Source: a virus (taxonomy: Duplodnaviria > Heunggongvirae > Uroviricota > Caudoviricetes). From it: a stretch of 9,713 bases of DNA. A model generated the notes under the pieces. It was not told where the DNA came from. It did no database searches and was given only the letters and a program-made list of their open reading frames with translations. The stretch covers positions 1-9,713 of IMG/VR virus record IMGVR_UViG_2737471860_000011; one strand, 5' to 3'. How positions within the stretch are numbered: position 1 is the stretch's first letter; each line of letters opens with the position of its first letter. A program made the translations under genes and the position numbers. Below are positions 84 through 9,713 of this stretch, piece after piece.

Positions 84-365
84 TTACCGCCGCAGTCGTT
101 CCGGCTTCTTCCACTGGTAAGTATTTTTCGCGCTCTCCCTCCGTTGTTGAGAACGGCGACGGTATGCCAGCAACTCAAGGACTCTGGTTCGTATGTTGCG
201 CATATCCACGCCGTTAAGCTCAATACCGTCACGGCGCATCACCTCAGCAACAACACGCGCGTAATTTTCGGCTGTCACGCTGTCCGGCTGTGTGGCCTGT
301 TCGTCATGCTGCTGGCTGATTCCGGTAACGCGGCGGATTAATCCCAGTAGTTCGGCTTCTGTCAT
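84..365 (-). CDS. Hypothetical protein (93 aa), function unknown
   Basis: ATG at 365-363 preceded by GGGGG Shine-Dalgarno 4 nt upstream; TAA stop at 86-84. Lies immediately outside the cosQ side of the left cos copy. No family recognised. Confidence 0.45.
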   Translation of the reverse strand: MTEAELLGLIRRVTGISQQHDEQATQPDSVTAENYARVVAEVMRRDGIELNGVDMRNIRTRVLELLAYRRRSQQRRESAKNTYQWKKPERLRR

Positions 366-397: not shown

Positions 398-465
398 TCG
401 GGTCCTTCCTGGAATTATGGCCCGTTACGGGGCGGCGACCTCGCGGTTTTTCGCTATTTATGAGC
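398..465 (+). other. Lambda-type cos site, copy L (cosQ-like, cosN 430-441, start of cosB), plus orientation
   Basis: Contains GGGTCCTT...GTTACG followed by GGGCGGCGACCT and CGCGGTTTTTCGCTATTTATGA. This matches the phage lambda genome ends (right end ...GGTTACG, left end GGGCGGCGACCTCGCGGGTTTTCGCTATTTATGA) as recalled from memory. Confidence 0.75.
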
Positions 466-658: not shown

Positions 659-1099
659 TTAACTTTGCTGTTCTGTAACGACTGATTGTTCCATGCTGGC
701 ACGGCGAACGCTTACGGCATGACGCCACCCAGCCAGAAAGCCAGCCATTTTATTTCGTGCCTTGCTCACATCTTCCGGTGAATAGCCGTAAATCTGCAAA
801 CCTTCATCAAATCGATGTTCTGTTTCTTCACTGGAGTACTCGTCACGCTCAGATGAAAGCAGCCTGGCAAACATAATTTTTTCCAGCGCACTGGTTTCTA
901 CGTGATATCTGATGGCCTCAAGACGGCTTTTACCTGAAGACCAAAGCAATGTATGCCCGATGTGATAACCGCCAGACTTTCCGCGATCCGCATTAAGATA
1001 CGGCATCCCCTGTTTGGTCCATGCGCGAATAGTGGTTCTGTTAACCTTGAAATGTTCAGCTATTTCCTGCTGACTTACAAAACAAGCTTTATCAATCAT
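659..1099 (-). CDS. Terminase small subunit Nu1-like protein / candidate PICI Rpp-type packaging-redirection protein (146 aa)
   Basis: N-terminus SQQEIAEHFKVNRTTIRAWTKQGMPYL parallels lambda Nu1 KKQLADIFGASIRTIQNWQEQGMPV (winged HTH). ATG at 1099-1097 with AAGGT Shine-Dalgarno; start lies about 90 bp downstream of cosN copy R in the lambda cos-to-Nu1 arrangement. Confidence 0.8.
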   Translation of the reverse strand: MIDKACFVSQQEIAEHFKVNRTTIRAWTKQGMPYLNADRGKSGGYHIGHTLLWSSGKSRLEAIRYHVETSALEKIMFARLLSSERDEYSSEETEHRFDEGLQIYGYSPEDVSKARNKMAGFLAGWRHAVSVRRASMEQSVVTEQQS

Positions 1100-1165: not shown

Positions 1166-1233
1166 GTCATAAATAGCGAAAAACCGCGAGGTCGCCGCCC
1201 CGTAACGGGTCCATATGCCGGAAAGGACCCGCA
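1166..1233 (-). other. Lambda-type cos site, copy R (cosN 1189-1200 on minus strand), canonical position upstream of the Nu1-like gene
   Basis: Reverse complement reads GGGTCCTTTCCGG...CCCGTTACG, GGGCGGCGACCT, CGCGGTTTTTCGCTATTTATGA. About 90% identical to copy L in inverted orientation; cosN 12-mer identical to lambda. Confidence 0.8.
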
Positions 1234-1260: not shown

Positions 1261-1674
1261 TCAGATGGTTTTCAGTATGCGATCAATGTCGCCGTCATCG
1301 CCCGGGTTTCTGCCATCGTATGCCATGCCAGCTGATACGGCTTGTGGGCTGTGCATGTCCATAAAGTTTTCAAAGGCTGCGGTAAGCTCTGGTGCAACCT
1401 TCTGGCGTTCCTGCTCTATGGTCATGTTCAGGATGTTTTTAGCCGTATCAACATCAATACAAGGCACGTTTGCCATTGCACGTAACAGCGGCTGATAGTC
1501 GTCAGATTCATGAAGCGACATAATCGCATCAGCGCGCGGCTTGTCCTGTTCTTCCAGTTTGTTAAGTTGATATATAGCTTCGTAGGTTGATAGACATCTG
1601 TCAGCCATTGCCCGCGCTTCAGCTTTAAATTTACTCGCCAGCGGTAGCGCCATGATACTTTCATTCGTTGCCAT
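1261..1674 (-). CDS. Hypothetical protein (137 aa) in capsid module; possible assembly or scaffold-like factor
   Basis: ATG at 1674-1672 with GGTGGA Shine-Dalgarno, 13 nt after the gpD-like stop. The track ORF 1261..1785 extends upstream across the gpD-like gene and is probably an over-extension. Acidic, helical-looking sequence; no family recognised. Confidence 0.55.
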   Translation of the reverse strand: MATNESIMALPLASKFKAEARAMADRCLSTYEAIYQLNKLEEQDKPRADAIMSLHESDDYQPLLRAMANVPCIDVDTAKNILNMTIEQERQKVAPELTAAFENFMDMHSPQAVSAGMAYDGRNPGDDGDIDRILKTI

Positions 1675-1687
1675 CGTTCCACCCTGC

Positions 1688-2023
1688 TTATCGCGCCAGC
1701 GGCTGAACAGATACACCAGAACCCGCAAAGGCGGCGCATTTTTTCGCGTCAGTGTCGGCGCTCTCAGGCCAGTTAACGGCGGCAATATTGAATATCCCCG
1801 TCTTGTAACACTGTGCTGACTTCTGCTTTGACGTGTCCACGGGGTACGAAGTCAGATAAACAGCCTTGCCAGATTCCTGACCATCCCACGGCTTAAACTC
1901 GCCATTGTCCGCCAGCATCAGCGGGGTAAATTCCTGAATAACGCCAGCATCAGCGGCAAAATGTACCAGTGTCGTGGATACCTGCTGACTGCCTGCAAAT
2001 AACTCAATGTATGGAGTGTCCAT
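1688..2023 (-). CDS. Head decoration protein, lambda gpD-like (111 aa)
   Basis: TPLMLADNGEFKPWDG and YKTGIFNIAAVNWPESADTDAKKCAAFAGSGVSV parallel lambda gpD TPLMLDTSSRKLVAWDG and [35 protein letters not shown]. ATG at 2023 with GGGGGA Shine-Dalgarno, 11 nt after capsid stop. Confidence 0.85.
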   Translation of the reverse strand: MDTPYIELFAGSQQVSTTLVHFAADAGVIQEFTPLMLADNGEFKPWDGQESGKAVYLTSYPVDTSKQKSAQCYKTGIFNIAAVNWPESADTDAKKCAAFAGSGVSVQPLAR

Positions 2024-2034
2024 AGAATCCCCCG

Positions 2035-3090
2035 TTAACCAATTTTGACGGTAACAAATTTGCGAATATCTGCCGGAACCGGCTGCGGTGCGCTGTGTGT
2101 CTGCACGTACTCAATCGCCGGATCGCCGTCCTCAATCCAGTTTTTCGGGTAGTACATGTTTTGCGTTGCGCCCGTTCTTACAGCTTCCTGATCCATAATC
2201 GCACCATAGGCCACCAGACCTTTGTTGTTGGTGTTGCCCAGGACCAGTAAATCAGGCTCAAGGAAATATTTTTCGGTGCCGTCGCTGTCAGTGTATTTGC
2301 CGGAATAGACGATAAGGGCAATATCGCCCAGATAGCCTTTAAAGCTCACCACTTCGCCCAGGTTTTTACAGGCCAGTTCTGCGGCGGATTCTGAACCACG
2401 GGAAAGATCGTACAGTTCGCGGAATTTTTTAAAGCTGCGTAACGTTCGCCATACCTCAGCGCCCATAATCATGACGTTGGCGGGGCAACCTGCTTGATCT
2501 GCGTATAGTTCGATATCATAGATTGGATCATGGGTTTCTTTGTCCTGCTCTGACCATTTACGGCCTTTGGCCTGCTCTATGATGTTTTTTTCCGGTATCT
2601 TCCAGTCGATTTCATAGCGTTCTATGCCTTCGCCCTCAATGATGTTTTTTCCGGTCGTTACCGCATTCACCGCCAGCCATTCCACGCGTGCCTTAATGGC
2701 GTTTATCTGGCGGCGCATGTTGCCAGTAATCAGGCGCATACGTCGGTAGGTAGGATCGTTAAGCTGTGCCGGATCTTCTCCAGCCATGCGCATGATGGTT
2801 TTTGTTGGATCGATTTCGTGCTTTGGCTTCATGTAGCCAGGTTTAATCGTGCTGGTTTCGTACCCTTTATCGCGCTGTACCTGGCTACCCACCATAGGCG
2901 AACAAAACGCAGACATGGTAACTTCTTCGGTATCCAGGTTATCCAGCATGATGTTTTGCGTGTTGAATGTCGCTACTTTCGGGAAAAACAGCGACGTAAA
3001 CAGTGGACTGAATTTAAATTCCGAAATATCCCCGCGATTCAGGTATCTGAAAAGCTGGTTAGTGTTAAGTGCCGTTGCTTTGCCTGTCAT
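2035..3090 (-). CDS. Major capsid protein, lambda gpE family (351 aa)
   Basis: KFSPLFTSLFFP, KPGYMKPKHEIDP, DPTYRRMRLITGNMRRQ and C-terminal YPKNWIEDGDPA match lambda gpE (KFDPLFLRLFFR, TPGYVKPKHEVNP, DPAYRRRRIIMQNMRDE, YPKNWVTTGDPA). Strong GGAGGTG Shine-Dalgarno 4 nt before ATG at 3090. Confidence 0.9.
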   Translation of the reverse strand: MTGKATALNTNQLFRYLNRGDISEFKFSPLFTSLFFPKVATFNTQNIMLDNLDTEEVTMSAFCSPMVGSQVQRDKGYETSTIKPGYMKPKHEIDPTKTIMRMAGEDPAQLNDPTYRRMRLITGNMRRQINAIKARVEWLAVNAVTTGKNIIEGEGIERYEIDWKIPEKNIIEQAKGRKWSEQDKETHDPIYDIELYADQAGCPANVMIMGAEVWRTLRSFKKFRELYDLSRGSESAAELACKNLGEVVSFKGYLGDIALIVYSGKYTDSDGTEKYFLEPDLLVLGNTNNKGLVAYGAIMDQEAVRTGATQNMYYPKNWIEDGDPAIEYVQTHSAPQPVPADIRKFVTVKIG

Positions 3091-3296
3091 TATTCACCTC
3101 CATGAGTCTGATTCATGCCCAGCGCCGCACGTAAATAGGCGCGTACCTGCCAGCCTGTTGACGGCTCAACCATCGCCAGCGGCTCAAGTCCTGCCGCAAT
3201 GCCTGCTTTTACGTTCTGCTGGTGGCGTTCCTTGAGCGCCTCCACGATGTCTGGGCTTATGTAAACTGTCACCCCGCCTTTTTTCTCTTCTGCCAT
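3090..3296 (-). CDS. Hypothetical small protein (68 aa) translationally coupled to the major capsid gene
   Basis: ATG at 3296 with AGAGGA Shine-Dalgarno about 10 nt upstream; its TAA stop overlaps the capsid ATG (TAATG). The track ORF begins at a GTG (3329) inside the promoter palindrome, which is less likely. Function unknown. Confidence 0.45.
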   Translation of the reverse strand: MAEEKKGGVTVYISPDIVEALKERHQQNVKAGIAAGLEPLAMVEPSTGWQVRAYLRAALGMNQTHGGE

Positions 3297-3324
3297 AGTC
3301 GGAAATTCCTCTTTGACGTTAAAA

Positions 3325-3380
3325 ATCACAACTGGATGTTCATCCAGTTGTGATTATAATCATGATTTCATTTTACGCAA
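3325..3380 (-). promoter_or_regulatory. Candidate sigma70 promoter of the capsid module overlapped by a 30-bp perfect palindrome operator
   Basis: Minus strand: -35 TTGCGT (3380-3375), 16-bp spacer, -10 TATAAT (3358-3353). Palindrome ATCACAACTGGATG-tt-CATCCAGTTGTGAT (3325-3354) abuts the -10 and covers the predicted start site; its core is CTG-N10-CAG. Confidence 0.5.
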
Positions 3381-3465
3381 TAATGTTTGGTTGTGTTGCA
3401 AATTGTGAAATGATTTGCGGCAACAGTAGTCACCATACTGTTAGATAAAAGCCTCATATGCAAAA

Positions 3466-3502
3466 GCCCGATAAGACCCTCTGACCTTATCGGGCTTTTT
3501 TT
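3466..3502 (+). terminator. Strong rho-independent terminator (bidirectional potential) between SSB and capsid modules
   Basis: GCCCGATAAG / CTTATCGGGC 10-bp stem with 10-nt loop followed by TTTTTTT on the plus strand; preceded by AAAA, giving a 4-U tail on the minus strand. Confidence 0.65.
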
Positions 3503-3547: not shown

Positions 3548-3970
3548 TTAAAACGGTATGTTATCCCCGTACGGATCATCGTTACCCGCCTGTTGTTTTG
3601 CCCTGTTCAGTGCGTCAGTAGCCTGGCCCTGTTGACCTTTTTTGCCGCCCAGTCGCGCCGTTCGCGCACTGATTACACTGTCTGCGATAACCTGCCAGCC
3701 CTGCCGCGTTTCTCCGTTCTGCCCAGTCCACTGGCTGATCTGCATGTTACCCGCCACGCTCAGGAGTTCACCCTTGCGGTGCCTTTCCAGTGCTTCGGCC
3801 TGTCTGCCAAATGCCAGGACGGATAACCACATCGTCGCCGTTCCGTCATCTGCCTGGCTGCACGGAAGGGGGACCGCCATACGCGCCAGCGTCATCGGTG
3901 TGCCCTTGCTGGTGGTCTTTAACTGCTGGTCAGCCACCAGCCGCCCGTAAGCCGCTATCTGTGCTGTCAT
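3548..3970 (-). CDS. ssb: Single-stranded DNA-binding protein (SSB) homolog (140 aa)
   Basis: OB-fold signature WLSVLAFGRQAEALERHRKGE...QWTGQNGETRQGWQV parallels E. coli SSB [21 protein letters not shown]...KWTDQSGQDRYTTEV. Gly/Gln-rich linker and C-terminal tail ending DNIPF (E. coli SSB ends DDDIPF). ATG at 3970. Confidence 0.8.
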   Translation of the reverse strand: MTAQIAAYGRLVADQQLKTTSKGTPMTLARMAVPLPCSQADDGTATMWLSVLAFGRQAEALERHRKGELLSVAGNMQISQWTGQNGETRQGWQVIADSVISARTARLGGKKGQQGQATDALNRAKQQAGNDDPYGDNIPF

Positions 3971-4033: not shown

Positions 4034-4158
4034 TGCGGGTTATAATCGCACTTTTGCGGGTTATAACTGCCATTTTGCGGGTTACGTGCGGGTTATTGAT
4101 TTCCTTTTTATTCATACAGTTAATTCACTTATACACAGGATAACCCGCATAACCCGCA
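4034..4158. repeat. Iteron array, putative replication origin
   Basis: Direct repeats of TGCGGGTTAT/C at 4034-4043, 4055-4064, 4076-4085 (21-bp phasing) and 4087-4096; AT-rich spacer 4097-4139; two inverted copies ATAACCCGCA at 4140-4149 and 4149-4158. Immediately 3' of the primase-helicase gene. Confidence 0.7.
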
Positions 4159-4181: not shown

Positions 4182-6305
4182 TTAATCTTCTGCCTCAGGC
4201 TGGAACATCATCACGTAAAAAACATGCTGCTTACCCCCAATTTTGCCGAGCGCCTTTTTCTTGTAACGGCGATCGTTACCCGCTTCCAGCATTCCGGCAG
4301 CACTCAACGCGCGGGCAAAGTGAGACGGATTAAATCCCTGTGCTATCTCACCCTCAAACACATGAGGAAACGTGTAAAAACGGAACTCATCATCTTCATT
4401 TCTGATACTCCCCTTTCTGTATCCGGCAAGGTCTTTAATCGGTAAATCACGCTCATCACTGTTTGGGTAAGGAAGGTATCGACTGAACCCGAACGACGAC
4501 AAAAACGCCTCAGCCTGTTCAACCATCTGTTTAAATTCCCTGTTACCCGTGCCGAACTCCTTCACCCAGGCATTAAAGTTATGCTGTATTGCGTCCCGGC
4601 ATTCCTGCGCGGCCCAGCCAGTTACATGACCGGAAAGCACAAGCGCAGCCTCCAGTATGGCGAAACGCTCCCCCACGCGGTGGACCTGCTCGCCGTAGCT
4701 ATCCGGTATCAGGTTGCGCCACCGTTCGCGGCATTCCCTTACCGTATCCTTTGCCTCCTGCTGGTGGTCTGCCAGCCATTTAACCCATTCACGACCCGCC
4801 GCCCCGTGATTTTCTGTCCAGGCATCTTTTAACGCGTCTGCGTGCGCCTTTCCGGTGCTGTATTCGTGAAATTGCGTGGCTTTTTCCATCGGAACGTTAA
4901 GCAGGCGGACAAGCTGCCCCGCTTTGACTTTTATCCCCTCCGTTTTGAGGAATGTCTCAACGTCCATTTCTCCGGTGCTGATTGCCACCGTGCGCCAGTG
5001 TTTTATCTCCCGGTTGCCGCCGTCCTTCGCCCCCTGTAATTTCCCGGAGCCGTTAAACAACGTATAGGCTGACGTGGACACCTCCCGCGCGTTTCCGGCC
5101 TGACCTATTTCATCCAGGGGTAACAGCCCGTCGTTGTGTGCCTCTGCCTCGTTGGCGATACCTAACGCCGTTCCGTACCAAGTAAGCCGTTGTGCGTCCG
5201 GCTCTCCCCATAAACTTGATGCGATGTTCTGCGTGGTGGTTTTCCCTGCCGATGACTGTTCGAAAAGATGTACCCCGAAGCCGTCAGCACCAACAAGGCC
5301 AATCAAAGGTGCTGCCAGTGACGTGGCAACACCCAGCATCATGGACGGATTGCCACCAGCCAGCCGCGCCACGCTGTCACGCCAGCCCTCCGCCGTACCC
5401 GCAACCGAATAGCCATTAACAGCGGCACTTTTTCCGGTAAACAGGATCGGTTTTTCAGAATCACCAATGATTGAACCGTCCGGCATGATGTACGCGCCAA
5501 AATGCCAGCCCGTTGTTGTGCTTAACTGCCATTCCTCATGGCTTCCGCTTAACTGCATCCAGTCAGCCAGGATAGCCCTGTATTTGCCGTTTGTTGTCAC
5601 ATTCAGCCCGTGATCTTTAAGCAACCGCCAGCCGTCACGGTCGCCAATGCCACCACACGGGATCGCCATTGTGATGACTTCATGGTTTGCTAATTTTTTC
5701 CAGCGCATCACGCGGTAATGCTCTTTACCGATCGTCCCCGTTCCCAGTAGTTCAAGCGGAGAACATAACCACGTCTCAGGCCGGATAATTTCGCCTGACT
5801 GCTTATCCACTTTGGGCGTTACCCAGAAAACACCATCGACGCGACTTTCAACGCGGGGCTTTAATTCATCATCCTGATAGCATGGCTCTTTTTTCTTTAC
5901 AGGCAGTTCAACTACCTTTTTCTTTTCCGCCAGCTCTCCCCGCTCACGCTCCAGATATTCGCGCCAGTTCTCCCGTTTCTGGCTGTGCATTCCTTCAGGG
6001 TAATAATCAGCATCCCTGACACCTGCCGCTGCCAGTTTCTGCCCGATGGTATTAACAAGCCCCGGACGCAATAACCCCGCCTGATAGAGACGCACGCGAT
6101 AGCGTCCGTCCGGTACGATTTGCAGGTTGTCCAGTTCGACAAGTTGTTGCTCTCCAAGCCAGACAGGTGGCACGTTATCGCCAGCCAGTCGCCCGTCCTG
6201 TTCCTGCCACTGTTTCGCATGTGCCCACGCATCACTACCCGCAAAAATGATGACTTCCGTCATTTTGTCACGCGGCTGGTGTTTTAAATTTGGCGCTTTT
6301 TTCAT
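4182..6305 (-). CDS. Replication initiator, fused primase-helicase (P4 alpha-like / DUF927-type, Pri-Rep), about 707 aa
   Basis: Large ORF with a P-loop-like motif (FEQSSAGKTT); position downstream of AlpA and directly upstream of the iteron array. Preferred start is the ATG at 6305 with GGAGAG Shine-Dalgarno, rather than the upstream GTG at 6320. ATG overlaps the stop of the preceding ORF (ATGA). Family assignment is from overall resemblance and context, not a domain search. Confidence 0.8.
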   Translation of the reverse strand: MKKAPNLKHQPRDKMTEVIIFAGSDAWAHAKQWQEQDGRLAGDNVPPVWLGEQQLVELDNLQIVPDGRYRVRLYQAGLLRPGLVNTIGQKLAAAGVRDADYYPEGMHSQKRENWREYLERERGELAEKKKVVELPVKKKEPCYQDDELKPRVESRVDGVFWVTPKVDKQSGEIIRPETWLCSPLELLGTGTIGKEHYRVMRWKKLANHEVITMAIPCGGIGDRDGWRLLKDHGLNVTTNGKYRAILADWMQLSGSHEEWQLSTTTGWHFGAYIMPDGSIIGDSEKPILFTGKSAAVNGYSVAGTAEGWRDSVARLAGGNPSMMLGVATSLAAPLIGLVGADGFGVHLFEQSSAGKTTTQNIASSLWGEPDAQRLTWYGTALGIANEAEAHNDGLLPLDEIGQAGNAREVSTSAYTLFNGSGKLQGAKDGGNREIKHWRTVAISTGEMDVETFLKTEGIKVKAGQLVRLLNVPMEKATQFHEYSTGKAHADALKDAWTENHGAAGREWVKWLADHQQEAKDTVRECRERWRNLIPDSYGEQVHRVGERFAILEAALVLSGHVTGWAAQECRDAIQHNFNAWVKEFGTGNREFKQMVEQAEAFLSSFGFSRYLPYPNSDERDLPIKDLAGYRKGSIRNEDDEFRFYTFPHVFEGEIAQGFNPSHFARALSAAGMLEAGNDRRYKKKALGKIGGKQHVFYVMMFQPEAED

Positions 6306-6601
6306 TTCTGCTCTCTCCACGCGGCAATCATGTTTTTCAGTTCCTGTAGTTTTTTATCCACATCCACACGTGACACATGGTTATTTCTGGAAGTCGGGAT
6401 TTCCCGCCGGAATCTACAAATAAAGATCTCCACGTTCAGCGAACTAAGAAATGAATAGCCATCACGGATAAAATACACACGGTCAAACATCAGTTCTTTT
6501 ACCGTTACTCTGTTACCGTTCTTATCCAGATAAATAGCGCCGGGGATAATTTTGGGGTGTGCATAACCGCTGGCAGTCAAGCCAGATAAATACGTTCTCA
6601 T
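6302..6601 (-). CDS. Hypothetical protein (99 aa), translationally coupled to primase-helicase
   Basis: ATG at 6601 with GGGGA Shine-Dalgarno; TGA stop overlaps the primase ATG. About 38% GC in a sampled 100-bp stretch, lower than the primase gene. No family recognised. Confidence 0.55.
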   Translation of the reverse strand: MRTYLSGLTASGYAHPKIIPGAIYLDKNGNRVTVKELMFDRVYFIRDGYSFLSSLNVEIFICRFRREIPTSRNNHVSRVDVDKKLQELKNMIAAWREQK

Positions 6602-6607
6602 GATTAC

Positions 6608-6928
6608 TTATCCCCGATTTGAATCAGTATTCGCTTTCTTTATGGCATTTAACGCATCTGTGGCATTTTCAATGGTGCACCGTAACGAAATATCAAACTG
6701 CCCAAGCATTGTCAGTAACAAACCGATATTCCCCATGTCAATGCGCATAGCCTTTTCGTCATATTCCTTATTTTCTGACGCATACCACATCAGGCTACCA
6801 ATTGACGCAACAGCCATTGATATATTGTCAGTAGCCGCATCCGCAGCAGAATAAACCTTTTTAGCAATATCATGCTCACAGTTAAAATGCGGATTAATCA
6901 GGTACTGGTAATTTGACATATCAGGCAT
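6608..6928 (-). CDS. Hypothetical protein (106 aa)
   Basis: ATG at 6928 with GGGGG Shine-Dalgarno; 6-nt gap to the next gene. Low-GC like its neighbour. No family recognised. Confidence 0.55.
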   Translation of the reverse strand: MPDMSNYQYLINPHFNCEHDIAKKVYSAADAATDNISMAVASIGSLMWYASENKEYDEKAMRIDMGNIGLLLTMLGQFDISLRCTIENATDALNAIKKANTDSNRG

Positions 6929-7124
6929 GGCACACCCCCTGACGAATACGGGCAGCGAATACCATCACGCAGCCAGCCGGGGATTGCTGGCGTGCTTCCT
7001 GTTCGCTGCTGGCCTCAATGGTAATCACGCGCGGTTGTGCCGTACTCAGGGCGATAAAACGCCAGATGTATTTATTCAGGTTGTGCGAGTCCAGCCCTTG
7101 CGGGTGTGTGGTATGATTTCTCAT
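6921..7124 (-). CDS. Hypothetical small protein (67 aa), first gene of the replication operon
   Basis: ATG at 7124 with GAGGT Shine-Dalgarno 5 nt upstream; 8-nt overlap with the next gene start. The track ORF 6921..7862 (313 aa) is rejected as one CDS; only the 3' 68 codons have a ribosome-binding site and sit downstream of the promoter. Confidence 0.4.
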   Translation of the reverse strand: MRNHTTHPQGLDSHNLNKYIWRFIALSTAQPRVITIEASSEQEARQQSPAGCVMVFAARIRQGVCHA

Positions 7125-7222
7125 AGCTACCTCGATACTCTTGCTATCGTTGGTGGTTAGACGCCCTGCATGTGTTGCGAGCACTGCGGGGCGTTGCTTA
7201 ATTTGAGTGACAAAACTCAAAC

Positions 7223-7302
7223 TGTGCGCACAGATTAAAATCATGTGTGCGCACATGTCAATACTTAACATCTCATTTTTTTTGCTGTATTGTGTGCGCC
7301 CA
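7223..7302. promoter_or_regulatory. Divergent promoter region with three operator palindromes (TGTGCGCACA)
   Basis: Perfect 10-bp palindrome at 7223-7232 and 7246-7255; one-mismatch copy TGTGCGCCCA at 7293-7302. Minus-strand promoter: -35 TTGACA (7261-7256), 16-bp spacer containing O2, -10 TTTAAT (7239-7234), with O1 at about +1. Plus-strand promoter: -35 TTAACA (7265-7270), 17 bp, -10 TATTGT (7288-7293), with O3 over -10/+1. Confidence 0.6.
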
Positions 7303-7329
7303 TAAAGTCCATTTAAGTGAGGTGCATCA

Positions 7330-7527
7330 ATGTCTAGCGGTAACACAAACAACAAATCAGCAAAGAAAAATATTCGATTCCCACATGAGCTTATAGATGG
7401 GATTGATGCCAGCGTTGAACAAGAAAAATTAACTAATCCTAGTGCTAATTTTTCCGCATGGGTCTTAGATGCCTGTGGACGCAAATTAAAATATGAACAG
7501 CGCCGGAAGGCCAAAGAATCAGAATAA
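7330..7527 (+). CDS. Arc/Mnt-like ribbon-helix-helix transcriptional regulator (65 aa), candidate repressor of the replication operon
   Basis: NIRFPHELIDGIDASVEQE...NFSAWVLDACGRKL parallels P22 Arc NLRWPREVLDLVRKVAEENGRSVNSEIYQRVMESF (beta-strand then two helices). GAGGTG Shine-Dalgarno 6 nt before ATG; divergent from the operon across the operator palindromes. Confidence 0.65.
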   Translation: MSSGNTNNKSAKKNIRFPHELIDGIDASVEQEKLTNPSANFSAWVLDACGRKLKYEQRRKAKESE

Positions 7528-7584
7528 TCACTATCAGCGCCGTGGTGTGAGTAACTACGGCGCATTGCTATGCAGGACAACACA

Positions 7585-7758
7585 ATGACCGATAAAGAAT
7601 TGACCAAAACATTATCACCGGCACGGAAAAGACGGCGCAGAAAGATAGAGCATGAATCAGAAAGATTCGCACCTTGTTCGTTTGCTCTTGAGAAATTCCT
7701 TAAAGAGCACAGGAAAAAGCTCTCGTTGCAAACCTTGGGACGAACCAAATCTGACTGA
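7585..7758 (+). CDS. Hypothetical small arginine-rich protein (57 aa from ATG 7585; track ORF starts at 7570)
   Basis: AGGA about 8 nt before ATG 7585; contains ARKRRRRK. Sits between the RHH gene and a plus-strand terminator. Weak support overall. Confidence 0.3.
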   Translation: MTDKELTKTLSPARKRRRRKIEHESERFAPCSFALEKFLKEHRKKLSLQTLGRTKSD

Positions 7759-7825
7759 TCACATTGCCCACCAGCCGCAAATGTGGCATTGTTGGTGATG
7801 CGTTCAAGTTTAGTGTGTATCCATT

Positions 7826-7851
7826 GGCGACCGCCCCCGGTCGCCTTTGTT
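7826..7851 (+). terminator. Rho-independent terminator of the plus-strand regulatory transcript
   Basis: GGCGACC gccccc GGTCGCC hairpin followed by TTTGTTATATAT on the plus strand; no U-tract on the minus strand. Confidence 0.6.
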
Positions 7852-7872
7852 ATATATGTCATATGCTCCCCT

Positions 7873-8082
7873 TTACGCTGCCTTACCTGAATTAATGCGA
7901 TCCCGGCTTTTAACCCATTCCATAACCTCGGACAGCAGCCAACCTACAGAACGCCCACCAAGATTACGGCGAGACGGAAAGCTCCCTTTTTTCTCCAGTT
8001 CGTAGCGTGTAGTGCGACACACTCCAGTTAACTTACGACATTCATCCTCACGGATTACGCGATCTTCATTTATTTCACGCAT
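7873..8082 (-). CDS. alpA: AlpA / P4 Vis-family transcriptional regulator (69 aa; track ORF extends to a GTG at 8169)
   Basis: ECRKLTGVCRTTRYELEKKGSFPSRRNLGGRSVGWLLSEVMEWV matches the AlpA pattern (HTH, then KxGxFP...LGGRSV.W...E...W). ATG at 8082 with AGGT Shine-Dalgarno; adjacent to and co-directional with the integrase. Confidence 0.8.
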   Translation of the reverse strand: MREINEDRVIREDECRKLTGVCRTTRYELEKKGSFPSRRNLGGRSVGWLLSEVMEWVKSRDRINSGKAA

Positions 8083-8474: not shown

Positions 8475-9713
8475 TCAATAATTTTGGGTGTAAATTCGCG
8501 GGGTCATAACAACGATTTTTTCATCATTGTTCTGGAGAAGCTCGAGACGGTCTACCCATAGATTAAGAGCGTCACGCTTTGCATCGAGATAACGGGAGTG
8601 GTTATAGACGCGTTGCATTCCTGGCATCTGGTGGGCAGTAAGCTGTTCGACAATATGCGGATCCACGCCTAAATCGTTCAGCATGGTTGTAAATGTGTGC
8701 CGGATGTCGTGCAACGACCAGGGGGCTTGATTAATGCGTCTGTGTGCCGTTCTTCCGTACTCTGCTACGGATGATTGCCCTTTCAGTTCTCCAAGCAATA
8801 AGCCCGTGTGCCTGTTCTGCTCCACCAGCTTCATGACGAACGGCAAGATCGCTTCCGGTATTGGCCTGAATATTGCTACCTTCGTTTTGCTGTGTTCTTT
8901 CGGCACAGTCCAGAGCATTTCTTTAAAATCCCATTCCCGAACCTCGGAGCGTCTTAGCTCAGTGGTACGGCATCCGAAGACAATCAGAAGGCGAATTAAA
9001 GCGCTGTAGTACGGCGGGAAAATTTTTTCATCCAGTGCGCGGAGTAGCTCGCCAAGCTCCTTGTTTGTTAGCACTCGCTCGCTTATTTCTGCTTTTTTTC
9101 CCACATCACCTACGACCATATCATCAAGAACGTTACTGACGGCGTAGCGACGTTTACGGCAGTACTTAAGCGCCTGTTTGCATACCTGCAACAAAAAGCC
9201 GGCTGATACCGGATTACGCTTAGCAAGCTGGTCAAAACAGGCCAGCCAGTGGCGTAGCTCGCATTTATCCAGCGGCATAGCACCAATCTGGCTGATTATG
9301 TGCTTATTGATACGGCTTTTCAGTGATTCGTGGTCAGTGCGCTTTTCCTTCGCATACGACTCAAGCCAGTAAGTGAGCGCGTCCTTAACCGTCACGGGGG
9401 CTAACGCTTCCTGCACTGTGTGATTAAGCTCATGGCGTGGATTTTTCCCCTCCGCCAGCCAGGCGCGACACTGTGCCGCTTTTTCCCTGGCTGCTTTCAG
9501 GCTCAGATCGGGATAGTTGCCCAGTCTCAGGCGTTCCGGTGATACCTGCCTGCCAGTTCCGGCCCTGTAAGTGAAATACCAGGTTAACAGGCCGCTAGTG
9601 GAATGTCTTACGCTAAGATTGCCACCGTCATTAAAAAAGGCGTTTTTTGTGGTTGGTGATCCGCTTAATTTTCGTAAAAGAGTGTCGCTAAGTCTATGAA
9701 TTGCGCTGCTCAT
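8475..9713 (-). CDS. int: Site-specific tyrosine recombinase, P4-type integrase (412 aa; start codon is the last 3 nt of the window, possibly 5'-incomplete)
   Basis: N-terminal LSDT...DGGNLSV...YFTYR...LGNYPDLSLKAAR parallels the CP4-57 IntA N-domain. C-terminal catalytic signature HDIRHTF (H-x-x-R) and VYNHSRY (tyrosine nucleophile). Confidence 0.9.
   Translation of the reverse strand: MSSAIHRLSDTLLRKLSGSPTTKNAFFNDGGNLSVRHSTSGLLTWYFTYRAGTGRQVSPERLRLGNYPDLSLKAAREKAAQCRAWLAEGKNPRHELNHTVQEALAPVTVKDALTYWLESYAKEKRTDHESLKSRINKHIISQIGAMPLDKCELRHWLACFDQLAKRNPVSAGFLLQVCKQALKYCRKRRYAVSNVLDDMVVGDVGKKAEISERVLTNKELGELLRALDEKIFPPYYSALIRLLIVFGCRTTELRRSEVREWDFKEMLWTVPKEHSKTKVAIFRPIPEAILPFVMKLVEQNRHTGLLLGELKGQSSVAEYGRTAHRRINQAPWSLHDIRHTFTTMLNDLGVDPHIVEQLTAHQMPGMQRVYNHSRYLDAKRDALNLWVDRLELLQNNDEKIVVMTPRIYTQNY

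Follow-up and report, generated by a model that had tools for sequence, protein, structure and literature searches.

A conserved LexA-type box at the predicted promoter of the capsid and packaging operon in EcCICFT073-type phage satellites

The host repressor LexA is borrowed by mobile elements such as coliphage 186 (tum), Gifsy (antirepressors), CTX-phi (rstA) and the colicin operons. Among phage satellites, operon I of the SaPIs, the packaging operon of these Staphylococcus aureus islands, is described as LexA-controlled (Ubeda et al. 2007, Mol Microbiol 65:41, as cited in PMC6739421). In the E. coli satellite EcCICFT073, c1499 encodes a capsid homologue, c1500 a decoration protein and c1503 RppA (PMC6092414, PMC6739421). 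The literature on phage-inducible chromosomal islands (PICIs) of E. coli covers AlpA-dependent activation and the function of Rpp; a promoter or operator of the capsid/rpp genes, control by LexA and the sequence of the site described here were not found in the papers searched.

The stretch of DNA analyzed (9,713 nt, referred to as the window) is, by its gene content, an EcCICFT073-type PICI, a phage satellite of E. coli. The features that mark this type were located in the window: int, alpA and pri-rep, followed by a packaging module with Rpp and a lambda-type cosN. No lysis or tail genes were found in the window, and all of its substantial genes are encoded on the minus strand (Table 1). The window is syntenic with annotated islands adjoining tRNA genes or phoQ, and CP-933C/Sp7 in O157 has the same layout (PMC3378721). 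Complete E. coli genomes with related islands number in the hundreds; the islands occupy several insertion sites and differ in their integrase, regulator and replication modules. The capsid/packaging operon was read in the order p68, capsid E-like, decoration D-like, scaffold-like and Rpp. Two exact lambda-type cosN 12-mers (GGGCGGCGACCT) lie in opposite orientation on either side of rpp, at 1189-1200 (minus strand) and 430-441 (plus strand), and match the cos1/cos2 pair known from EcCICFT073 (PMC6739421). Between alpA and the replication genes, two small plus-strand ORFs (7330-7527 and 7570-7758) run against the direction of the island; the one at 7330-7527, of 65 aa, matches DUF3950 (YlcI/YnfO-like). 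A 313-aa minus-strand ORF overlapping both of them (6921-7862) is probably spurious.

Table 1. Coordinates of genes and of predicted or observed sequence features in the window.
Feature	Position	Strand	Details
Integrase	8475-9713	-	
AlpA	end at 7873	-	
DUF4222 protein	6302-6601	-	
DUF927 primase	4182-6320	-	
SSB	3548-3970	-	
Terminator-like hairpin 1, after ssb	3535->3511	-	GCCGGA-GAAG-UUCGGC, then U6
Terminator-like hairpin 2	3499->3462	-	14-bp stem
Predicted -35 hexamer TTGCGT	3380->3375	-	3/6 matches; 16-nt spacer to -10
Predicted -10 hexamer TATAAT	3358->3353	-	
Perfect inverted repeat, 15-nt arms, 2-nt centre (15+2+15)	3324-3355		plus strand: AATCACAACTGGATG-tt-CATCCAGTTGTGATT
Conserved 20-bp LexA-type (SOS) box	3330-3349	coding strand	AACTGGATGAACATCCAGTT
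Predicted transcription start	3344-3348	-	~7 nt downstream of -10, near 3346; from promoter geometry
Run of five T (U in RNA)	3321-3325	- (coding strand)	directly after the 3' arm
Shine-Dalgarno AGAGGA	3307-3312	-	10 nt ahead of ATG (3296); conserved
p68, 68 aa	3090-3296	-	phrog_3255; operon gene 1
Major capsid protein E homologue (lambda-E-type, c1499-type)	2035-3090	-	Pfam PF03864, E = 2.7e-52; PMC6092414
Head decoration protein D homologue (lambda-D-type, c1500-type)	1688-2023	-	Pfam PF02924
Scaffold-like 137-aa protein	1261-1674	-	phrog_1999; weak similarity to head maturation protease C-terminus
Rpp (redirecting phage packaging) homologue	659-1099	-	PDB 6HLK RppC, E = 5.7e-31
93-aa protein	84-365	-	

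A perfect palindrome of 30 bp with 14-bp arms had been described at the capsid-operon promoter by the first-pass annotation. The same object was recovered with one further base on each side, its arms being 100% complementary. Among closely spaced inverted repeats in the window it is the longest, the sole comparable one being the terminator hairpin at 3462-3499, and by our own arithmetic a specified pair of 15-nt arms has a chance expectation of ~1e-4 in 9.7 kb. The core of the repeat lies at 3332-3347 (CTGgatgttcatcCAG, also given as CTGGATGTTCATCCAG) and is of the form CTG-N10-CAG, with CTG and CAG exactly 10 nt apart. On the coding strand the region reads TTGCGT, 16 nt, TATAAT, CAC, AACTGGATGAACATCCAGTT, GTGATTTTTAACGTCAA, AGAGGA, 10 nt and ATG (3296). 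The TATAAT that was said to abut the palindrome is present but overlaps its outer three bases. That the palindrome spans the transcription start was borne out by promoter geometry, with both promoter and start being predicted, and the geometry of a repressor operator was upheld. Three nucleotides separate the invariant TATAAT from the LexA-type box, which extends across the predicted +1, a promoter-occluding placement; overlap with -10 and +1 is a usual placement of LexA boxes.

The capsid-operon promoter was not called by a consensus promoter scanner, as its -35 hexamer matches the consensus at only three of six positions, and a consensus terminator scanner missed both terminator-like hairpins after ssb. 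Because the promoter and these evident terminators were missed, their assignment rests on conservation and folding. The tandem hairpins stand directly after the ssb stop codon and gave an MFE of -40.9 kcal/mol (z = -4.5) on RNA folding. Since they insulate the capsid/rpp operon from the replication module, the operon must depend largely on its own promoter. In the relatives the -35 is poor (TTGCNN), with TTGC conserved. The -35 region lies within a second inverted repeat, TTGCA-N5-TGCAA, at 3365-3381; in the window this repeat is degenerate (TTGCGTAAAATGAAA). It was kept in most E. coli copies, where it occurs once per island and at the capsid-operon promoter only (~7367-7381 in related islands L002-L007), and in Pluralibacter it is a perfect 15-bp palindrome (TTGCATTAAATGCAA; contig L103, 5911-5925). 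This repeat may be an activator or repressor site. An alternative upstream promoter, TTCACA-18-CATTAT, was set aside, its -10 not being conserved in Pluralibacter.

A LexA matrix was prepared from 20 documented SOS boxes read from thirteen stretches of E. coli K-12 MG1655. Sites were scored with a Lewis-type heterology index (HI) derived from these 20 boxes, which themselves score 2.2-9.9. The index tracks published values (PMC11228462) closely: 8.0 against 7.6 for ruvA, 7.7 against 7.5 for cho, 5.4 against 5.0 for recA and 2.25 against 2.1 for umuD. The window box scored 6.4 (symmetrised) or 6.05, inside the range of the 20 boxes; this places it beside uvrA and yebG and ahead of ruvA, cho and the boxes of lexA itself. 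The LexA match first proposed from the CTG-N10-CAG spacing was strengthened by this scoring. Other E. coli haplotypes scored 5.3-9.6, Pluralibacter 7.0 and Salmonella 10.4. Across 296 kb of K-12 there were ten sites with an HI of 6.4 or better, nine of them known boxes, and the capsid-promoter operator accounted for almost all sites with an HI <=10.5 in 748 kb of DNA from related islands. Two features had been held against LexA, namely the lack of CTGT/ACAG ends and of an AT-rich centre; both lose their weight, in that CTGG/CCAG ends and mixed centres occur in proven E. coli boxes. The K-12 boxes of ruvA (CGCTGGATATCTATCCAGCA), cho (CACTGGATAGATAACCAGCA) and rmuC (AACTGGACGTTTGTACAGCA) start with CTGG and many K-12 boxes end in CCAG, and both half-sites in the window are CTGGAT, the same as in the ruvA and cho boxes.

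Variability by position in the box was compared with the information content of the LexA matrix over 40 promoter variants, giving a Spearman coefficient of -0.58 (p = 0.008), and the observed substitutions were cheaper than random ones (permutation p = 0.016); these are related copies, and both p values are indicative only. Two recurrent changes run towards the LexA consensus, G>A at position 9 and C>A at position 15.

Several further sites were recorded during matrix scoring. Within the 296 kb of K-12, only one site with an HI <=6.4 was absent from the list of known boxes, namely ACCTGTTTAAATATCCAGTA (HI 5.8), located between minC and ycgJ (~1,226,338; L092 4339-4358). The second-best site of the window, TCCTTTTTATTCATACAGTT at 4102-4121 (HI 10.4), lies between the primase gene and ssb, has one good half-site (ACAG) and is without CTG; by sequence it is probably not bound by LexA. 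In other islands LexA-like 20-mers (HI 8.7-10.4) recur between the integrase gene and alpA, for example TACTGGTTTTTTATACACTA and ATCTGTTCGCATATCCAGTA, ~110 bp apart (L006 at 13025 and 13136, L007 at 12875 and 12986, L004 at 13559 and 13670, L002 at 13407, L005 at 12434). Nothing comparable was found upstream of alpA in the window. Published work reports alpA as not SOS-dependent.

Homologous promoters were collected from 7 annotated E. coli chromosomes and 80 IMG/VR contigs, yielding 87 copies with 40 unique promoter variants and about 16-17 haplotypes of the 32-mer. The TATAAT -10 hexamer and the CTG and CAG triplets are invariant in the 87 E. coli copies and are also kept in Salmonella and Pluralibacter. 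The CTG-N10-CAG spacing is unchanged in 86 of the 87, the remaining copy carrying a 1-nt insertion. Essentially fixed are TATAAT, the CA that follows it, CTGGAT-N4-ATCCAG and the T that flanks this element. The triplet that separates ATCA from CTGG is hypervariable (CAA, TAA, GAG, GGA, GAT, GAA), and its three partners on the opposite side vary independently. Comparison outside E. coli, where p68 homologues are rare, was made with two contigs found through p68 homologues. In Salmonella Glostrup (p68 66% identical) the box is CTGGATAAATATCCAG and the promoter TTTATAATCAGGACTGGATAAATATCCAGATTAGATT; its centre has a higher AT content and little of the outer symmetry remains. In Pluralibacter gergoviae (p68 60% identical) the box is CTGGATGTTTGTCCAG and the promoter TATAATCAGAACTGAATTTTTAACTGGATGTTTGTCCAGTTTTTTACG; the box stands 12 nt further downstream and outer symmetry is absent. 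The 12-nt insert between -10 and box in Pluralibacter (AACTGAATTTTT; L103 5935-5975) resembles the left half of the box (AACTGGAT) and looks like a partial duplication that moved the operator downstream. Two scans of GTDB representative genomes, one for capsid relatives and one for the pattern TATAATCANNNCTGGATNNNNATCCAG, gave no match.

The perfect 30-bp palindrome did not hold up as the functional unit: its outer arms are perfect in only 30 of the 87 copies, and its outer symmetry is lost in Salmonella and Pluralibacter. Judged by this alignment, the conserved unit is a 16-20 bp element containing CTG-N10-CAG rather than the 32-bp palindrome, and each arm's outermost five to six bases, which vary by lineage, probably lie outside the recognised site. 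We give even odds to the extended perfect palindrome being functionless in itself, a by-product of quasi-palindrome correction or of recombination around a shorter conserved element. Perfect outer arms exist in three sequence states (CAC/GTG, CAT/ATG and CAGGA/TCCTG) beside intermediate and mismatched haplotypes, and outer-arm symmetry does not significantly exceed that of left and right flanks paired at random (P = 0.055-0.09). Such an origin covers the outer arms only; the inner 16-20 bp are clearly constrained.

From the sequence match, the pattern of conservation and the position of the inner element we infer, with a probability of roughly 0.55, that LexA binds 3330-3349 and modulates the capsid-operon promoter. 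A host LexA dimer placed on ~-3 to +17 would hinder RNA polymerase at the sigma-70 promoter of the capsid/packaging operon. This promoter would be the operon's own control point, cut off from the replication module by the two upstream terminators. DNA damage, which induces lambdoid helper prophages and also leads to cleavage of LexA, would then relieve the block on the capsid operon. By its score the effect would be modest, similar to ruvAB or uvrA and not to sulA. As the weak -35 hexamer lies within the second conserved inverted repeat, an activator may also be needed. The site stays constant while AlpA, primase, SSB, the YlcI-like protein and the p68 alleles change, which points to a host factor.

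The expression data found all concern the O157 island. The response to ciprofloxacin was assessed from a dataset for strain EDL933 (PMC11125564 and its S1 table), in which the box variant of the CP-933C island is GACTGGATAAACATCCAGTT (HI 8.5). After two hours of ciprofloxacin the capsid transcript had changed by -1.8-fold; p68 (EDL933_1785) and the capsid protein were detected, and neither level was altered by the treatment at 3 or 12 h (PMC11125564). The island primase was up 5.3-fold and classical SOS genes were up 2-8-fold, and ruvA and ruvB, the box of which is the closest analogue, were not significantly changed (PMC11125564). Since ruvAB were also unchanged in the same dataset, the null result for the capsid gene is not decisive. 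In shallow RNA-seq over 11 conditions the capsid gene had an RPKM of 0-4 throughout; Z1846 (RPKM 69) was left out of the expression evidence, its assignment to p68 or pchE not being confident. EcCICFT073 still interferes with lambda infection when its host is not a lysogen (PMC6092414), so production of Rpp does not require SOS to be imposed. The expression data speak against a strong switch operated by LexA only, and fit either a weak modulation of the ruvAB kind or a promoter that requires an activator as well. A 79-aa form of p68 with an upstream GTG start corresponds to the '9 kDa EDL933_1785' of O157 proteomes.

That another dimeric DNA-binding protein (a helper regulator, a host factor, or p68 or Rpp in autoregulation) uses the site as its operator, with a half-site that resembles that of LexA by chance and an input other than SOS, is unlikely. 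GGAT/ATCC is invariant also at positions where LexA is tolerant or prefers T; all copies keep G as the fourth base of each half-site, for which LexA favours T, and this could reflect the specificity of another protein. The outer AATC/GATT is retained in E. coli and Salmonella, EDL933 showed no SOS induction of the capsid gene, and the p68 and capsid proteins could be detected there in uninduced cells. Set against this, we know of no other E. coli regulator with this consensus, and the half-site was found nowhere else in the window. A helper-encoded factor may read the CTG-N10-CAG site.

The island's own regulators do not follow the site. AlpA, which the first-pass annotation had named as a possible regulator, was undetectable by tblastn or ~70% identical in islands with the same core. 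The RHH protein named beside it, probably ORF 7330-7527 (plus strand), matches only DUF3950, and this YlcI-like protein is merely 32-38% identical between islands sharing the site; neither role was supported. Rpp has a winged-helix DNA-binding domain with contact residues conserved among Rpp types (PMC6739421), but Rpp types differ between islands with identical sites, and the known Rpp target is cosB beside cosN (1189-1200). For p68 there was no Pfam match, no PDB sequence match at E <= 10, no Foldseek match with E < 5 and no match among 50,697 phage records. Its AF2 model, of moderate confidence (pLDDT 75), has a beta-hairpin and two helices. The protein carries no RHH signature, and autoregulation by p68 as an RHH protein is not supported. 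Two p68 alleles that are 67% identical were each found with every common operator haplotype. These allele classes, distinguished by …DIVEALKERHQQNVKAG… and …EIVEVLKQRHKKNYEAG…, were read from the window (3090-3296) and from homologues in L001-L087. The shuffling of p68 alleles against operator haplotypes and capsid alleles (93-97% identical) indicates recombination within the module.

An action of the inverted repeat in RNA is quite improbable. It could be a hairpin with a U-run serving as a third insulator against read-through from ssb and the replication genes, or its inner stem CUGGAU-GAAC-AUCCAG could be a 5' stabiliser or leader attenuator. Folded as RNA, the minus strand from 3400 to 3290 gave a hairpin of 14 bp at the palindrome with five U directly behind it (MFE -27.5 kcal/mol, z = -3.95). 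The T-run after the box is found in all three genera, the Pluralibacter box abutting TTTTTT, but two strong terminators already stand 100-200 nt upstream, and no Rfam family matched anywhere in the window. On the coding strand several of the differences in the outer arms allow G-U pairs, and pairing was 93.3% against 92.0% in shuffles, with 11 of 500 shuffles as high (12 of 500 for covariation). This excess over shuffles is small. Of the 14 hairpin pairs seven never vary and two change on both sides, and the base of the stem is A-U rich. The symmetry excess was not significant, as given above, its level being one that structure-free sequence often attains, and 9 of 17 haplotypes lack the pair at arm position 6. 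The sequence CTGGAT/ATCCAG itself is unchanged across genera while its flanks diverge, and a C>A variant present in four copies breaks the inner stem yet improves the LexA match. In E. coli the 5' arm is untranscribed from the best-supported promoter. In EDL933, induction of the primase without spread to the capsid gene would fit an insulator. RNA-level and LexA roles are mutually compatible.

A two-input gate is a speculative extension of LexA control and carries a low probability. It would combine the LexA box at the start with TTGCA-N5-TGCAA, standing in place of a proper -35, as the site of a helper or island activator. If a gate of this kind operated, the interference and packaging genes would fire only in SOS with the helper developing, and it would account for ciprofloxacin alone not inducing the operon in EDL933. 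Alternatively, a LexA-like or CI-like protein encoded by the helper may bind the box in place of LexA. Three other candidates were rejected: a part of cos, the exact cosN 12-mers being distant; a lambda CI-type operator (ATCAC in the arms resembling TATCACC), the half-sites being 22 nt apart and the C specific to one lineage; and hijack of the helper Q antiterminator (PR'-like promoter, pause site and terminator), for which there was no support, helper Q being too diverse for one invariant site.

By the main reading, the site is probably an operator through which a mobile element makes use of the host's LexA, which would be unsurprising in kind. The sequence gives this reading a sound basis, but the sparse expression data have so far not supported it. 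If LexA does act here, antibiotic-induced SOS would be linked to the transfer of islands carrying virulence regulators such as PerC/Pch and RgdR in pathogenic E. coli. If it does not, the strictly conserved CTGGAT-N4-ATCCAG would mark the site of another regulator in a very common satellite family.

Gene for gene, the window resembles EcCICFT073 and CP-933C/Sp7, with int, alpA, pri-rep, (ssb), p68, capsid c1499, decoration c1500, rpp and two cosN sites. Its box shares with those of ruvAB and cho the CTGGAT half-sites and the CTG-N10-CAG spacing, and has a similar or slightly better HI. Unlike those boxes, which serve chromosomal repair genes with demonstrated LexA control, it has the centre GAAC, which is not AT-rich, and it is set within a longer, lineage-specific palindrome. 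In 186 tum, Gifsy, CTX-phi and the colicins LexA gates induction, antirepression or toxin release, whereas in the PICI it would gate the late capsid/packaging module. The likeness to SaPI operon I is that a satellite packaging or capsid-modifying operon has its own promoter bearing a host LexA site, here a candidate one, that the operon is separate from the helper-controlled regulatory/replication module, and that SOS would be a signal shared with helper induction. The SaPI box differs in being of the Gram-positive type and experimentally proven, whereas the PICI box is known from sequence, and the one available PICI dataset (EDL933) shows no SOS induction. The gene content also differs, SaPI operon I encoding TerS, Cpm and Ppi and the PICI operon Rpp with homologues of lambda E and D, as does the master switch, which is the activator AlpA in PICIs and the repressor Stl in SaPIs. 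If the PICI site is a LexA operator, Gram-negative and Gram-positive satellites would have independently put their helper-hijacking operon under the host SOS repressor.
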